This document shows positions 23,490 through 28,559 of a stretch of DNA of 36,220 nucleotides, in pieces. The stretch lies in assembly GCA_035703635.1 (NCBI GenBank), contig DASSXV010000072.1:1-36220 (forward strand), read 5' to 3'. The stretch's first letter is position 1. Every line of letters starts with the position of its first letter. The position numbers were made by a program, and so were the translations under genes. This DNA comes from Trueperaceae bacterium (lineage in GTDB: Bacteria; Deinococcota; Deinococci; Deinococcales; Trueperaceae). The notes under the pieces are model-generated. The model was not told the DNA's origin, did no database searches, and was given only the letters and a program-made list of their open reading frames with translations.

Positions 23490-23506
23490 CCTCAACGTAC
23501 TTTATT

Positions 23507-23551
23507 TGGTGCGCCCGAGAAGATTCGAACTCCTGACCTTCTGATCCGTAG
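23507..23551 (-). pseudogene. 3' half of tRNA-Arg(ACG), the prophage att site
   Basis: Minus strand CTACGGATCAGAAGGTCAGGAGTTCGAATCTTCTCGGGCGCACCA gives anticodon loop, T-arm (GTTCGAAT), acceptor 3' strand and CCA; upstream CGTGC cannot pair with TCAGA, so the 5' half is absent. Confidence 0.9.
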
Positions 23552-23614: not shown

Positions 23615-24883
23615 TCAGCTCGGTTCGACGCCCGAACTGGCGTCACTGGGTGCCGTTGGAACGCGAAAGCTGGTGCCTTCTGCTACCAAGCTGCTACCGA
23701 GAATCGCGCCGATGCGATCAGCCACGGCGCGGTGAGTCGAGTTGCTTCCACGCAGGTAGACCTTGGCTGTGAAGCGCGGGTCCGTGTGCCCCAGGCGCTC
23801 CGCTAGCGCGTGCAGGTTGACCCCGGCATCCGCCAGGAGGCTGCCGTGGGTGCTGCGGGTGGCGTAGAGCTTGATTTGGTTCACGCCCGCGGCCTTCTGC
23901 AGGGCGTTGAACTGGCCGCGCAGCGACGAGCGGCCCCAGATGGTGCCGGTGCTCGTGGGGAACACCGCGTCCAGGTCCTCCCAGGGTGGCGACTCGCGGC
24001 CCAGGGCCGCCTGGCGAGCGTTCACGTCCGCCCTGATGGCCTTGAGGCGCTCCACGTGCTCACGCTGCCGCGCCAACGCGCCCGTGGTGATGTCGTCGAT
24101 GGGCACCACGCGGCTAGCAGCGTCCGTCTTACCGCCCGCTCGCAGCTCGACGCGGCCCTCGACCTCAACCGCCACCCGCTCGACGGTTATGGTCTTGTCT
24201 TTGAGGTCGACGCTGGACCATGCGAGGCCCAGCAGCTCCTCGGTGCGCAGGCCAGTGCCTAGGGCTACCAGCGTGTAGCGTGCCGCCTGGTCATCCACGC
24301 TGAGGCAGTGTCGGACGACCTTGCCGATTTCGTCCTCACTCCACCGCTGGATGGCCGGCGCCTCGACTCTTGGCGGGTCGATCACGGCAACAGGATCTCT
24401 TGGGATGAGGCCCTTCTTGGCCGCGTCGCGCAACACCATGCCTACGTGCAGGCGGACGCGGCGCACGAGCGCCGGGGACGCCCCGCCACGCGCCAAGGTG
24501 AGGAGCAGCCGCTGGATGGTGCTGGGTTCGATGTCGCGGGCTCTGAGGGTCCCCAAGTGAGGCGTGGCGCGCTGCAGCACCCACTTGTAGGACGAGGTCG
24601 TGCTGGACTTCCAGCCGCGCAGCGTCTCGCCAGCTTCGAGCCAGGCGTCTACGAGGTCCTGGAAGGTGCTGTTGTCTCCGAGTTGCGCGCCGCCGTGGAG
24701 GGCGGCTTGTTGCTCGAGCAGCCAGGCTTGCGCGTCGCCTTTCGTGCGGGTCGTCTTGGTGCGGCGCAGCGGTTGCCCGCGCTCGTCGAACCCGACGATC
24801 AGGGCGGCGACCCACGTGCCGCGCTCGGGACGCTCGTACACTGCGCCCTCACCTGGAGCGCGGCGATTACGCTTGCGAGCCAT
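23615..24883 (-). CDS. Tyrosine recombinase / phage integrase
   Basis: RRAPGEGAVYER arm-binding N-terminus; TGLRTEELLGL, KT, YATR, LGH, VY catalytic set; GAGGAGG RBS before ATG 24883. Confidence 0.95.
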   Translation of the reverse strand: MARKRNRRAPGEGAVYERPERGTWVAALIVGFDERGQPLRRTKTTRTKGDAQAWLLEQQAALHGGAQLGDNSTFQDLVDAWLEAGETLRGWKSSTTSSYKWVLQRATPHLGTLRARDIEPSTIQRLLLTLARGGASPALVRRVRLHVGMVLRDAAKKGLIPRDPVAVIDPPRVEAPAIQRWSEDEIGKVVRHCLSVDDQAARYTLVALGTGLRTEELLGLAWSSVDLKDKTITVERVAVEVEGRVELRAGGKTDAASRVVPIDDITTGALARQREHVERLKAIRADVNARQAALGRESPPWEDLDAVFPTSTGTIWGRSSLRGQFNALQKAAGVNQIKLYATRSTHGSLLADAGVNLHALAERLGHTDPRFTAKVYLRGSNSTHRAVADRIGAILGSSLVAEGTSFRVPTAPSDASSGVEPS

Positions 24884-24989
24884 GCCGCCTCCTCTGCGCG
24901 CCAAGCCTGACTAGACGACCGCGCCACTTGTGCGGGCGCGTGCCTAGACCGTCAGCGTTGCGAGACATGGATTCCCTCCGTCCGACCGA

Positions 24990-25019
24990 GTTGGCGGTGC
25001 GCAGGACCGCGCCGCCAAC
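24990..25019. terminator. Hairpin between secB-like gene and integrase
   Basis: gttggcggtgcg / cgcgccgccaac, 12-bp stem with one non-Watson-Crick pair, no U tract. Confidence 0.45.
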
Positions 25020-25037
25020 CCGTAGCAGGTGGTCGGC

Positions 25038-25616
25038 CTAGCCTTTCGCTGCTGGCTTCTTTCGGCTAGCCGTAGCCGGCGCCTTCTTTGCAGACTTCAT
25101 CTTCTGTCTAGGACTTGCTGAAAGGGCGAGGGACTTCGGGTCGATCTTGAAGAACGTCCCGATCTGGTAGATCGGCAGGGTCAGTGGAGGCATGCCCGCC
25201 CGTCGCGTTACGTCCGCGATTACCTCCCGCAGGTACGGGTAGATGATGACCGGGCCCATCTGTGATGCAATCTTGGCGAGCTCAACGTCGACGTCGAGCG
25301 CTGCATCCTCAGAGATGGTGACGGTGATGCGCGTCTTCGCCGCGACGGTGAGCGATGCCGTCTCGGGCGCTTCAATCACGAGTTGAAGCGCTGCTACTAT
25401 CGCGTCTTTGGCCACACGCCCAGTCGAATAGTCGAATCGCAGGGTGGGTTCCGCGGGGCTGTCGGGGGTGCCTTGCTCTGCGGTCCGCGCCTGGGCAGTG
25501 CGCCCGCGAAGGTCGTCAAAGTGAAGTTTGACGATTTCCACGACGCCAGGGTCGATGTGTATGTTGCCAACTCGGCCTTGCTCGGCCTCAGGCGGCTGCG
25601 AGGTATTCATTGTCAC
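25038..25616 (-). CDS. SecB-like chaperone (TAC chaperone)
   Basis: GPVIIYPYLREVIADVTRRAGMPPLTLP matches the SecB C-terminal signature; third gene after a TA pair; start GTG 25616 or ATG 25610. Confidence 0.85.
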   Translation of the reverse strand: MTMNTSQPPEAEQGRVGNIHIDPGVVEIVKLHFDDLRGRTAQARTAEQGTPDSPAEPTLRFDYSTGRVAKDAIVAALQLVIEAPETASLTVAAKTRITVTISEDAALDVDVELAKIASQMGPVIIYPYLREVIADVTRRAGMPPLTLPIYQIGTFFKIDPKSLALSASPRQKMKSAKKAPATASRKKPAAKG

Positions 25617-26106
25617 CCTTCTCCTCGCGCGCTATCCAGTCGCCGGGTCGACCTCGCCACGGCTGCGACGAAGGTGCGGGTCTTCGCCGCGGGAGAGGCT
25701 TGCTCACGGAGGTAGTCACGGTGAGATTGTCGTCTTCCACTTGAGCTCGCGCCTCGACCTCTGCGATCGGCATGAAGGATAGCGGCACTACGGGGAGGAC
25801 CGCGACTATCGCGTCGGTTTCGGGGTCGACGATGTCAACGTCGAGTCGGTATCCGAGAGCGGCGACGTATCGGGCGAGCACGTCGAGCGTCATGGAGATG
25901 CCCTTGGTCGATTCAATCTGAGACACTCTGGACGCCTGGACGCCCATGACCTTCGCTACTTCTGCCTGAAGCATGCGTCGAGTATCTCGCGCCTTCTTCA
26001 GGCTCGCGCCGATGTCGGCGTTAACTTCCTCCCAGAGGAACTCGGCGAGTTCGGCGCTAATCTTCTCATCTTGGGGGATCGCATTGTTCGCGTGAGTGTT
26101 CGTCAT
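25588..26106 (-). CDS. XRE/HigA-type HTH antitoxin with extended C-terminal tail
   Basis: LKKARDTRRMLQAEVAKVMGVQASRVSQIES...TLDVLARYVAALG; ATG 26106 overlaps toxin stop (ATGA), GAGGAG RBS. Confidence 0.85.
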   Translation of the reverse strand: MTNTHANNAIPQDEKISAELAEFLWEEVNADIGASLKKARDTRRMLQAEVAKVMGVQASRVSQIESTKGISMTLDVLARYVAALGYRLDVDIVDPETDAIVAVLPVVPLSFMPIAEVEARAQVEDDNLTVTTSVSKPLPRRRPAPSSQPWRGRPGDWIAREEKGDNEYLAAA

Positions 26107-26462
26107 CCTCGGCTCCTCTTGTGCTCGTCGCAGCATTCTTGGGCTTTCTTGATGAGGCTCGAGTTGGCCTGGTTCCTACCGTTGTTCTTGATCTCAGCAG
26201 TGGCTAGGTAGTAGACGTTGCCGTCCCGGAACAGGTAGATGCGTAGGGCTCCGCTGTCGCATAACTCCCGTAACTCCCAGATGTCTCCGTCTATGTGGCC
26301 AAACATCTCGGTGTGGGCTAGTTGTGGTCCCATGAAGCTGAGGTTTCGCTTCAGCTTCTCGAACTTCTTCGCGCATTGCTTGGACAGCCCTTCGAAGAGC
26401 GTCCTGGCTTGGTTGGTTGTCCCCCCGTGCCAATGCCAGGTGACCTGGTAGGGAGACTTCAT
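26103..26462 (-). CDS. HigB/RelE (Gp49-like) toxin
   Basis: 119 aa, GDIWELR...ALRIYLF pattern; toxin-first order before an HTH gene. Confidence 0.8.
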   Translation of the reverse strand: MKSPYQVTWHWHGGTTNQARTLFEGLSKQCAKKFEKLKRNLSFMGPQLAHTEMFGHIDGDIWELRELCDSGALRIYLFRDGNVYYLATAEIKNNGRNQANSSLIKKAQECCDEHKRSRG

Positions 26463-26477
26463 TGCCCACGCCCCACT

Positions 26478-26516
26478 TTAGGATTTCCTAAGGTGCAGGT
26501 GTCCAGAATATGACAC
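26478..26516. promoter_or_regulatory. Candidate TAC operator palindromes
   Basis: TTAGGA-TT-TCCTAA 26478-26491; GTGTC-N8-GACAC 26499-26516; just upstream of toxin start. Confidence 0.5.
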
Positions 26517-26746
26517 ACGCATGCCTCTGGTGTGAAGCCCCAATGCAGGGGTAATGAAGAACGCATCGCCCTGAGATCCTCTCCCTCGCTCACTCTCGCC
26601 CTCAATTCGCCCCTTGCTGCCTAAGCCCCCCTCAGTTCGTCCCGTGGTTGCCGTTGGTCATCCCTTCAGGAGCCTGTGTATGACTTTGCCGAGGACTCTG
26701 CTGCCGTCTGGGGCTTGGAAGTAGCGGGGTTCGCCGTCGGGTGGGC

Positions 26747-27160
26747 TCATAGCAGCGTGACTACGGTTGCGACCGCAGCGCCAGTGGACGCGAGGAAGAC
26801 GAGGCAACCACGTCCGGTTGCTGCGGCTCGTGGCGTGTGCGTCCCCGCGCCATGCTGGAAGACGTGCGAGATAACTTCGCTGATCTCAAGGATTCGGACG
26901 TACGCCTCAACGTAGTCCTCGTGCTCGAAAACGCCGGCCGCGTCGTTAGCGAGCTGCGTGTACATCAGTTCCTGTTCTTCGACGTCCTCGACAGTCATCG
27001 CGTACCGGCGTTCTTCTTGGACGCTTCGGTACGTGGGGAGCGTCAGCTTGATGCCGCGGAGGCCCTCTCGAACCTTCTCTAGCAGCTCTTCCTTCGAGTA
27101 GCCCCGTGCGTAGATTGCGGCTTCTTGCTCTTCTCGGAACTTCGCCCAGTCTGTCGCCAT
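26747..27160 (-). CDS. Hypothetical protein with C-terminal hydrophobic anchor
   Basis: 137-aa ORF, GAGGGGG RBS, acidic helical body, GCLVFLASTGAAVATVVTLL tail. Confidence 0.7.
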   Translation of the reverse strand: MATDWAKFREEQEAAIYARGYSKEELLEKVREGLRGIKLTLPTYRSVQEERRYAMTVEDVEEQELMYTQLANDAAGVFEHEDYVEAYVRILEISEVISHVFQHGAGTHTPRAAATGRGCLVFLASTGAAVATVVTLL

Positions 27161-27199
27161 GCTTCCCCCTCGTGCGCGCTTAGAAGCCCAGTGCCTTCG

Positions 27200-27925
27200 T
27201 CACCTGAAGCCGGGTGCTCGCGTCCAGTTCGCGACCATGACGCCACGAAGCATGGCCGGAGTCTCCTCGTCAATATGAATCGGCGCGTGAGCCGCGTTAT
27301 ACGACATGAGCCACGCCTCTCCGTCTCGCTCGGAGTACACCTTGAGTACCCCCATGTCTTCGTTTTCAAGCCATGCGACGACGATTTGCCCAGGCTGCGG
27401 CTGTAGATGTTCGTGGACAATGATGATGCTGCCCGGCGGCACCCATCTTCTGGCGTCCTCACTAACCATCGAGTCTCCTGTGACCTCAAGCAAGTAGAGA
27501 TCGTCAGGGCGGTACGTGCCGAGGAAGTAATCTGCTACGCCCAGGTAATCGACTGGTCCAGCAACTCCGCTGCCGGTTACTCCCGCTGAAACTGTCCCCA
27601 AGAACCGCACCGGTTGAATCCTCCCCCTTGTCGGCTCGGCGTCGACTTTTCCGGTTAGAAGCACATCTAGGTCTTCTGGAAGCGCATCGACAACCCCTGT
27701 GCCGATCTTGTCGACGAGCCAGATCGGAACTGAGTAAATCCGACTCAAGCGGCGGGCAGTGTCGCTGCTCATGTTCACTGGGCCGATTGAGTTCTCGATG
27801 TTGGTGATCGTTGTGTGGCTCAGCCCAGCGCGTGAGCCAGCCTGACGCGCAGAGGGAATTCCGCGCCGCAAGCGCAGTTCTTTGAACAGGTCGCCAGGGG
27901 TGACAGGCCCCTTAGTGGTCGTCAT
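27200..27925 (-). CDS. CI/LexA-like prophage repressor (HTH + S24 peptidase)
   Basis: N-terminal HTH (GLSHTTITNIEN), VSAG cleavage site, GDSM Ser and LKVY Lys; TAGAGT 7 nt before ATG 27925. Confidence 0.9.
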   Translation of the reverse strand: MTTTKGPVTPGDLFKELRLRRGIPSARQAGSRAGLSHTTITNIENSIGPVNMSSDTARRLSRIYSVPIWLVDKIGTGVVDALPEDLDVLLTGKVDAEPTRGRIQPVRFLGTVSAGVTGSGVAGPVDYLGVADYFLGTYRPDDLYLLEVTGDSMVSEDARRWVPPGSIIIVHEHLQPQPGQIVVAWLENEDMGVLKVYSERDGEAWLMSYNAAHAPIHIDEETPAMLRGVMVANWTRAPGFR

Positions 27926-27932
27926 GATTGCC

Positions 27933-28042
27933 ACTCTAGGCGACGCGCTGTAAAGCCAACCGACCATTACGCGCCACTATAGCCGAAACACTGGCAAGTG
28001 TAGTTGACACTCAATGAGGTCAGGTGTAAACTCAACTTGCCA
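27933..28042. promoter_or_regulatory. Lysis/lysogeny switch: divergent promoters and operator inverted repeat
   Basis: TTGACA 28004-28009, 17 nt, TAAACT 28027-28032 (+); minus-strand TAGAGT 27933-27938 and TATAGT 27976-27981; 15/19 inverted repeat 27993-28011 vs 28023-28041. Confidence 0.75.
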
Positions 28043-28311
28043 TGCGAGAGAACACAAAGACCCCCCCGGCAATGCGAACGCCGCAGGAGCTTGCCGCCGC
28101 CCTCGGGCTTCAGCCGCAAACGGTAATGAAATTCTGCCGCGAGGAACGCATCAAGTGCATCCGAGTCGGCAGACTCTACCGGATTTCTGCCCCTGAGTTC
28201 GACCGGGTACTACGCGAAGGCGTGCCGCAAGTCCCCGGCGAACAGAGTGGCCCCGCAGTGTCAACTTCCCGGCAAGCACGCACCAATAACAGGAAGGAGG
28301 TGTCTCAGTGA
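28042..28311 (+). CDS. Excisionase-like HTH (HTH_17) protein in the Cro position
   Basis: TPQELAAALGLQPQTVMKFCREERIKCIRVGRLYRI. Confidence 0.8.
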   Translation: MRENTKTPPAMRTPQELAAALGLQPQTVMKFCREERIKCIRVGRLYRISAPEFDRVLREGVPQVPGEQSGPAVSTSRQARTNNRKEVSQ

Positions 28312-28559
28312 GTCCTGATCTTGAGCGTGTTCAGTTCCTGAACTCGTTGTCGTTCCTCACGGCGCAAGAAGCCGGAGAGTTGCTGCGCACCGGCAGGCAC
28401 GAGATTTACCGCCTCGTGCGTGCCGGGCACATCGCCTGCACGCGGTTCGGGAAGAAAGTCGTCATCTCCCGCGAGGAACTCGACCGCTTCATGCGCGAAG
28501 GGCACGTGGTGAACACGCGCCCCATGACCAAGCAGGTGAGAAGGCACCTCAGCAACTAA
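28308..28559 (+). CDS. Excisionase-like HTH (HTH_17) protein
   Basis: LTAQEAGELLRTGRHEIYRLVRAGHIACTRFGKKVVISREEL; AAGGAGG RBS. Confidence 0.85.
   Translation: MSPDLERVQFLNSLSFLTAQEAGELLRTGRHEIYRLVRAGHIACTRFGKKVVISREELDRFMREGHVVNTRPMTKQVRRHLSN

Follow-up and report, generated by a model that had tools for sequence, protein, structure and literature searches.

A putative HigBAC-type toxin-antitoxin-chaperone cassette in a prophage from a probable Deinococcota host

Results

Organization of the cassette

Here we describe a putative toxin-antitoxin-chaperone (TAC) cassette in a contig deposited under the name Trueperaceae bacterium (DASSXV010000072.1, here C79), one of the 88 contigs of a 2.9-Mb genome. 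The whole contig, 36,220 nt long, was analysed and is referred to as the window. Three open reading frames (ORFs) at 25038..26462 on the minus strand are co-oriented and overlap one another in the order toxin, antitoxin, chaperone (T-A-C), and they lie between the genes of an integrase and a repressor, just where the original prediction had placed them (Table 1). All three encoded proteins exceed the gathering scores of their Pfam families. The start of the toxin gene is unambiguous, with an in-frame TAA five codons upstream. For the antitoxin, the ORF finder set the start at 26136; we prefer the ATG at 26106, because it shares ATGA with the toxin stop codon, giving a T/A overlap of 4 nt, because it is preceded by AGGAGCCGAGG, and because all the antitoxin relatives begin at the equivalent Met. 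The best start of the chaperone gene is the ATG at 25610, preceded by GGAGAAGGG; the same Met begins its relatives, and the overlap with the antitoxin gene is then 23 nt.

Table 1. Features of the cassette and of its surroundings in the window.
Feature	Position	Strand	Remarks
higB-like toxin gene	26103..26462	-	119 aa, Gp49/RelE-HigB family
higA-like antitoxin gene	25588..26106	-	172 aa; Xre HTH at about aa 36-93, conserved linker, C-terminal extension
SecB-like chaperone gene	25038..25610	-	190 aa
Antitoxin C-terminal extension, candidate chaperone-addiction (ChAD) region	25591..25821	-	aa 96-172, about 75 aa, beyond the HTH domain
Lys/Ala/Pro-rich basic tail of the chaperone	25041..25133	-	aa 160-190; predicted local distance difference test (pLDDT) score 68-78, no secondary structure
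G+C-rich hairpin directly 3' of the chaperone stop, possible operon end	24987..25022	-	no U tract
Promoter-like site upstream of the toxin gene	26507..26536	-	sigma-70-like, TTCACA-18-CATATT, TG before the -10
Inverted repeat between the -10 and the toxin ATG, candidate HigA operator or hairpin of the 5' untranslated region	26474..26495	.	arms 26474-26483 / 26486-26495
Tyrosine integrase gene	23615..24904	-	Pfam Phage_integrase 7.1e-17, Phage_int_M 7.2e-9
Attachment (att) core, copy of the 3' part of tRNA-Arg(ACG)	23506..23551	-	46 nt, just past the integrase gene
Orphan ORF between repressor and cassette	26747..27160	-	137 aa
cI/LexA-like repressor gene (HTH + Peptidase_S24)	27200..27967	-	Peptidase_S24 2.8e-16; phrog_4 transcriptional repressor 1.7e-18

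The third protein has a SecB fold

The chaperone matches the Pfam SecB family (PF02556; 28.5 vs a cut-off of 26), and its best sequence match among solved chains is Rv1957, the chaperone of the Mycobacterium tuberculosis TAC (5mtw, E 8.7e-5). It is also matched by the PADLOC model PD-T4-9_C (E 1.1e-5). Its AlphaFold2 (AF2) model, built from an alignment with 63 rows of distant relatives, reached a pLDDT of 90.2 and a predicted template modelling (TM) score of 0.79, and contains four strands and a long helix (residues 107-137). When this model was compared with the PDB by Foldseek, 23/23 matches at E<=1e-3 were SecB proteins, Rv1957 or a pair of SecB-like proteins without assigned function (TM scores by target, 0.57-0.69). 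The original prediction had staked itself on a SecB fold in this protein, and that fold is what we found.

The last 25 residues of the chaperone carry a net charge of +9. Tails of at least +5 occur in 16/20 of the nearest chaperone representatives, and distant SecB-like proteins are mostly acidic at this end (25/40 at -3 or below). Among the SecB-like chaperones of the order, 18/29 show a net charge of at least +4 in their last 25 residues, mostly with Lys/Ala/Pro-rich tails. The acidic C-terminal tail of the export SecB docks to SecA. This chaperone is the sole SecB match in its own genome and the Pfam SecB model matches 2/201 genomes of the order, and therefore we do not regard it as a housekeeping export chaperone. 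The features expected of such a chaperone are not those found here, as SecB is rare in the order, the gene is prophage-borne and shares sequence with the antitoxin gene, and the tail is basic.

The toxin resembles HigB

The toxin falls within the Pfam family Gp49 (PF05973) with 26.4 bits vs a cut-off of 23.9. The RelE/HigB likeness that had been proposed for it was recovered by Foldseek, which matched the AF2 model to HigB of Streptococcus pneumoniae (6af4, TM 0.72) and to HigB1, the TAC toxin of M. tuberculosis (7nbu/7awk, TM 0.67). A search of solved structures with the toxin profile returned only HigB 6af3 (E 0.21), and this weak hidden Markov model (HMM) alignment places W62-E63-L64-R65 of the toxin on the WELR of S. 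pneumoniae HigB. In the HigB-TAC of M. tuberculosis, E66, R68, R77 and K95 are named as residues of the catalytic pocket and the K95A substitution abolishes toxicity, according to the available text of PMC9098466. E63, R65, R74 and K92 of our toxin have a spacing identical to that of these four residues, an equivalence based on the spacing and one weak HMM alignment, with no superposition. Furthermore, E63, R74 and K92 are invariant across 4 toxin relatives. The fold, together with these three conserved residues, suggests that the toxin may cleave mRNA in a ribosome-dependent manner, as an endonuclease with the RelE/HigB fold.

It had also been claimed that the toxin gene is more AT-rich than its flanks. 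Its G+C content of 0.558 is indeed numerically the lowest of the region (antitoxin and chaperone 0.609, integrase 0.687, host part 0.657), but the G+C content at third codon positions (GC3), 0.767, is not below the 0.71 of the antitoxin and chaperone genes, and the whole interval from int to cro is low in G+C. Since GC3 is no lower in the toxin gene than in the other two genes, the dip is an effect of amino acid composition, and a separate origin of the toxin gene was rejected for the same reason.

The antitoxin and its C-terminal extension

The antitoxin scores 25.7 with Pfam HTH_3 (cut-off 23) and slightly below the cut-offs with HTH_37 and HTH_31, and its best sequence matches in the PDB are HigA3 (6lty, E 3.6e-4) and HigA2 (7ewc, E 4.4e-4) of M. 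tuberculosis. In agreement with the HTH antitoxin bearing a long tail that had been anticipated, an extension follows the HTH domain (Table 1). Twelve antitoxin relatives have in common the HTH and a conserved linker, VPVVPxSFMxVEEVExR, after which comes a variable stretch that ends in W...E(Y/L)LAAA; the aromatic residues of the tail (aa 96-172) are F111, W150, W157 and Y168. Two relatives in the databases, of 121 and 134 aa, end directly after the linker.

The closest HigA relatives in the same order measure 126 (L041), 155 (L042) and 140 aa (L043) and their three genomes have no SecB-like match, while the antitoxins paired with the chaperone lineage of the window measure 172 and 184 aa. This pattern, with longer antitoxins beside a chaperone and shorter ones without, matches the prediction of chaperone addiction, but it is a correlation over few loci, and other TACs of the order have antitoxins of just 133 aa (L030, L034). 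The ChAD regions described so far have no sequence similarity to one another, as stated in the available text of PMC5105189, and so sequence cannot decide whether the tail is a ChAD. A predicted complex of four copies of the chaperone (aa 1-165) with the antitoxin tail scored 0.12 vs a mark of 0.32, without control runs, and is uninformative about binding.

The closest HigA relative in the genus (L041, on G015:C15) is tail-less. No clear toxin ORF was found upstream of it and a TGA lies inside the profile match, so that this antitoxin may be decayed or solitary.

Occurrence and partners of SecB-like genes

Members of the chaperone lineage are rare. With a word-based search we retrieved 4 clusters among 5.8 billion; of the 1.84 billion representatives searched with a profile, 274 matched at E<=1e-3, of which 48 reached E<=1e-10 and 12 reached E<=1e-30. 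Scanning genome contigs for the chaperone returned a single locus (L002), which carries the same T-A-C operon, and in the scan of viral contigs 0/259 pattern matches were confirmed. At L002/L008, from another genus of the same family, gene order and gene sizes are those of the window and the proteins are 31-44% identical; metagenomic relatives of the trio reach 83-86% and 59-66% identity.

A broader SecB-like profile (A3) matches 29/363 genomes of the order, a count that includes one unpublished genome (G340), on which alone no claim rests. Neighbours were counted at 29/30 SecB-like places (L032, in G116, being left out), and 88/129 upstream ORFs on the same strand were sent to Pfam, the other 41 being mostly short or nested frames. 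Genes of toxin-antitoxin (TA) type lie directly upstream of the SecB-like gene at 26/29 loci: Gp49 with HTH at 15 (the L008 toxin by alignment only, and the Gp49 of L014 slightly below the cut-off), HTH only at one, HicB with or without HicA at seven, and DUF4160 with DUF2442 at three. At the three others, the upstream genes belong to no family. In agreement, all SecB-like sequences of Deinococcus-Thermus were stated in 2012 to belong to TAC or antitoxin-chaperone (AC) systems, as given in the available text of PMC3581621. At L032, a HigA-like match lies about 600 bp from the SecB-like match, and this locus is probably another TAC.

In a maximum-likelihood tree of the 29 chaperones, that of the window groups with L008 (96/93), and the pair is sister to four HicB-linked chaperones from the same family (L007, L009, L010, L011). 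The resulting six-member clade has a support of 100/98 and a branch length of 1.53. The starred branches of this tree force at least three changes of TA partner for HigBA, and therefore chaperone modules have moved between TA families, a behaviour described for TAC chaperone modules in the available texts of PMC5105189 and PMC3581621.

Two side observations arose from this survey. First, DUF4160, DUF2442 and SecB-like genes form triads at three loci (L024:173-1647, L027:139-1644 and L028:170-1647, in G094, G149 and G287; same order, family f4). Their DUF2442 proteins are long (248-258 aa, the domain covering only about aa 32-97) and their chaperones form one clade with a support of 100/99. The DUF4160/DUF2442 pair could be the basis of a TAC class; the TA types named for TACs in the available text of the cited papers are HigBA, HicAB and MqsRA, plus CmdTA, and this pair is not among them. 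Second, a distantly related HigBAC-type TAC was found in a DdrB-positive genus of the same order (L004/L022, on G049:C29), with a toxin of 131, an antitoxin of 150 and a chaperone of 203 aa. Its neighbours are the end of a large gene on the upstream side and a long unidentified ORF of more than 489 aa on the other, a setting which may be a defence island.

Upstream region, transcript evidence and environmental occurrence

The intergenic gap upstream of the toxin gene measures 284 bp. The promoter-like site there matches the consensus at 9/12 positions, being a consensus match only, and three such sites occur in a 3.3-kb region vs 0.6 expected. The inverted repeat has 10-nt arms, 9/10 complementary, and a 2-nt spacer; folded as RNA, it reaches -17.2 kcal/mol (z -2.35), with 6/200 shuffles as stable. 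A short palindrome centred on GCATGC is also present in the region. At the other end of the cassette, the hairpin after the chaperone stop reaches -36.9 kcal/mol over a 76-nt stretch (z -2.17), with 3/200 shuffles as stable, and it was not called by the terminator scan. Rfam and ARAGORN scans of the window returned no RNA elements.

In the metatranscriptomic library X2, one contig of 1492 nt spans 24972-26439 with 3 differences, from the hairpin after the chaperone gene to codon 8 of the toxin gene. This contig is compatible with a tricistronic RNA, without proving one transcript. Near-identical DNA was found in 20 listed runs from 11 coded studies, mostly metagenomes of sludge, wastewater and bioreactors, and in 7 of these runs half or more of the sampled words are present. 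A DNA contig of run X3 joins 26737 to 27199 (side 52) and lacks the orphan ORF; therefore, the cassette directly follows cI in some variants, and the orphan ORF is a variable insert. Searches of Pfam, NCBIfam and PHROGs assigned this 137-aa ORF to no family, and the Atlas gave no usable match for it. Two other joints, 24882 to 27194 (X3, side 23) and 24959 to 25266 (X2, side 32), were too weak to count. The RNA runs X13 and X19 leave parts of the window uncovered, and we drew no inference from them.

Prophage setting and host

On the minus strand, a cI/LexA-like repressor gene is followed by the orphan ORF, the cassette and the tyrosine integrase gene. The 46 nt of the att core are identical to the end of an intact tRNA-Arg on contig C70 (G000:C70:24688-24764, L036), and no whole tRNA lies in the window. 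Both att copies are followed by similar, non-identical G+C-rich hairpins. Genes for a major head protein (phrog_267, 2e-65) and for a tape-measure protein lie beside the tRNA-Arg of C70. On the plus strand of the window, from 28042, there are two HTH_17 genes and genes for an SbcC-like protein, a RecT-like protein, a hydrolase, an O-like replication protein and a DnaC-like loader. The prophage setting that had been predicted was thus found, with integrase, repressor, att copies, head and tape-measure genes. The element looks like a complete tailed prophage in tRNA-Arg(ACG), split over at least two contigs, because the 46-nt tRNA-Arg repeat stands at both ends and head and tail genes are on the second contig. 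The two consecutive HTH_17 (excisionase/Cro-like) genes (28042-28559, plus strand) face the repressor gene across a promoter-like site at 28004-28032, and they likely form the lysis-lysogeny switch of the prophage.

A Deinococcota host had been called probable, and the support that we obtained is indirect. DdrB, which we take to be specific to the Deinococcus lineage, is present in 3/5 genomes of the same order, and among 14 named control genomes its family was matched only in Deinococcus radiodurans; in the own genome it was not found. These results indirectly support a host in a Deinococcus-related order, but in another family than the Deinococcus-like organisms.

Discussion

In our view, the cassette represents a TAC module of HigBAC type in which neutralisation depends on the chaperone, and we give this reading a probability of about 0.8. 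An integrated tailed prophage carries it as accessory cargo in its lysogeny region, where it shares the strand of the cI-like repressor gene and lies downstream of it.

Several results weigh against this reading. The Pfam SecB match spans only residues 112-147 of the chaperone and lies slightly above its cut-off. Confidence in the toxin model, which was built from an alignment of 4 rows, is intermediate (pLDDT 67.3), a single-sequence search of solved structures with the toxin gave no match at E<=1, and R65 is not conserved in L002. The tail of the antitoxin has no recognisable similarity to any described ChAD, and a ChAD common to HigA and HicB partners was rejected, as the tails of the HicB antitoxins paired with the sister chaperone clade do not align with it. 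On the side of regulation, the cassette had been said to have its own upstream palindromes. The inverted repeat and the short palindrome are there, but the repeat, taken as DNA, was matched by 80/1000 dinucleotide shuffles of the 284-bp gap and is not clearly beyond chance; moreover, the region upstream of the L002/L008 operon yielded no inverted repeat, and a conserved operator was rejected. As for the transcript, contigs of RNA libraries may hold DNA and show neither strand nor ends. PADLOC, which had been proposed as a check, recognised the chaperone and nothing more, as its PD-T4-9 models match neither the toxin nor the antitoxin of the window and no system-level call was made. With the chaperone as query, tblastn returned nothing from 50,697 phage and 72,556 plasmid records. 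Finally, toxicity, neutralisation, chaperone dependence and anti-phage defence are what we infer for this cassette, rather than what we observed.

If the cassette works as a HigBAC-type module, the overlaps of its genes and the promoter-like site suggest that toxin, antitoxin and chaperone would be co-expressed in the lysogen from the promoter upstream of the toxin gene, possibly with read-through from cI. HigB would cleave mRNA on the ribosome. HigA, as is usual in its family, would bind and neutralise HigB and use its Xre HTH to repress the operon. Given the architecture and the shorter antitoxins without chaperone, the C-terminal extension would be expected to destabilise HigA unless the SecB-like chaperone holds it. 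Titration or removal of the chaperone would then lead to the loss of HigA, which would free HigB and stop translation; in the HigBAC of E. coli, the agent that frees the toxin is a structural protein of the infecting phage.

The most likely benefit, tentatively and with odds somewhat short of even, would be the protection of the lysogen against other phages, because of the analogy with the E. coli HigBAC and because of the genomic slot downstream of cI. Ranked after defence, and unlikely although not negligible, is a module that would stabilise the prophage by addiction: upon loss of the prophage or of expression, the labile antitoxin would decay and the cell would die, without other phages being sensed. 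The cassette directly adjoins the integrase gene, TA modules beside integrases are classic stabilisers, and phage sensing by the cassette is proposed by analogy only. TACs have also been framed as stress-responsive, horizontally acquired modules, in the available text of PMC3581621. However, the two TACs of this architecture tested on E. coli prophages defend against phages, and the slot downstream of cI is a known slot for defence cargo in E. coli, according to the available text of bioRxiv 10.1101/2024.02.24.581848. Moreover, an integrated prophage with an intact repressor would need stabilising less than a plasmid. Stabilisation and phage defence are not mutually exclusive roles.

It is improbable that an ordinary HigBA pair happens to stand beside an independent SecB-like chaperone serving the folding or export of phage or host proteins, with no chaperone addiction. 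Solitary proteins with a SecB fold do occur in a few phages (5 BFVD matches at E<=1e-3), a solitary SecB is mentioned for a Clostridium difficile phage (available text of PMC3581621), and the binding of the chaperone to the antitoxin is only a candidate interaction. Nevertheless, the ORFs of chaperone and antitoxin share 23 nt, SecB-like genes of the order sit directly downstream of TA genes at nearly all loci (26/29) and the order is otherwise without SecB, the antitoxin is longer than in the relatives lacking a chaperone, and the tail, being basic and not acidic, argues against an export role through docking to SecA. We find it just as improbable that the module is decayed or non-toxic, its toxin being harmless like HigB2 and HigB3 of M. 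tuberculosis, which are non-toxic under the conditions given in the available text of PMC9098466, and the cassette a regulatory remnant; the low Pfam score of the toxin (26.4) and the variation of R65 among relatives fit such decay, but all three frames are intact, the trio is conserved in another genus and in metagenomic relatives at the identities given above, and E63, R74 and K92 are invariant.

A more speculative thought concerns the basic tail of the chaperone. This histone-H1-like Lys/Ala/Pro tail might tether the chaperone-antitoxin complex to nucleic acid or to the ribosome, in which case sensing and toxin release would be unlike those of the M. tuberculosis and E. coli TACs; we regard this as doubtful.

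The original prediction had presented the setting as one not known to be characterised, and this overstated its novelty. TAC and AC systems of Deinococcus-Thermus were catalogued in silico in 2012 (available text of PMC3581621), the HigBAC of an E. coli prophage, beside cI, has been characterised (available text of bioRxiv 10.1101/2024.02.24.581848), and SecB-like genes are found in 29/363 genomes of the order, nearly all of them beside TA genes. The architecture, the set of folds and the genomic slot have all been described already, and the cassette is no new class of system. Within the library searched, our literature search returned no experimental work on TACs of this phylum. Should the cassette be active, prophage-borne TAC immunity would extend from Enterobacteria to a Deinococcus-related order. 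The sensor logic was worked out in E. coli and, again if it is active, this compact and sequence-divergent HigB/HigA/SecB trio could serve to test how general chaperone-based phage sensing is. The chaperones also provide a natural example, from a single bacterial family, of how such modules move from one TA partner to another, here HigBA and HicAB.

Comparison with known systems

HicAB-SecB TACs contain the sister clade mentioned above, whose chaperones lie downstream of HicB antitoxins in the same family (L007, L009, L010, L011). The toxin and antitoxin families are others there, and the antitoxin tails do not align with that of the window. Two-component HigBA systems (Gp49/Gp48-type) share the toxin family and the antitoxin HTH family, and chaperone-less relatives exist in the same genus and family (L041, L042, L043). 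Their antitoxins measure 126-155 aa and no SecB-like gene follows, whereas the 172-aa antitoxin of the window overlaps a chaperone gene. CmdTAC (PD-T4-9) of E. coli shares the SecB-like chaperone, as the match to PD-T4-9_C indicates, but its toxin is an mRNA ADP-ribosyltransferase (available text of PMC11618068), whereas that of the window has a HigB-type RNase fold.

The M. tuberculosis TAC, HigB1-HigA1-SecB^TA (Rv1955-Rv1956-Rv1957), has the same T-A-C order, and in both systems a toxin of Gp49/HigB type is combined with an Xre-HTH antitoxin carrying a C-terminal extension and with a SecB-like chaperone. Rv1957 is the best sequence match of our chaperone among solved chains, HigB1 is a top fold match of our toxin, and the candidate E/R/R/K pocket residues of our toxin are spaced like the pocket residues of HigB-TAC (available text of PMC9098466). 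The two systems differ in that identity in structural alignments is about 20%, the antitoxin tail of the window does not evidently resemble the described ChAD, the chaperone of the window ends in a basic Lys-rich tail, and the cassette is prophage-borne, not chromosomal, and belongs to a different phylum.

HigBAC of E. coli NT1F31 is likewise a HigBA-type TAC on a temperate prophage, located downstream of cI in the slot of lambda rexAB, according to the available text of bioRxiv 10.1101/2024.02.24.581848. Our searches returned none of the E. coli proteins, so that the two systems were compared by description, and in the window an orphan ORF stands between cI and the cassette. The trigger of the E. 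coli HigBAC is gpV, the major tail protein of the infecting phage (bioRxiv 10.1101/2024.02.24.581848, available text).

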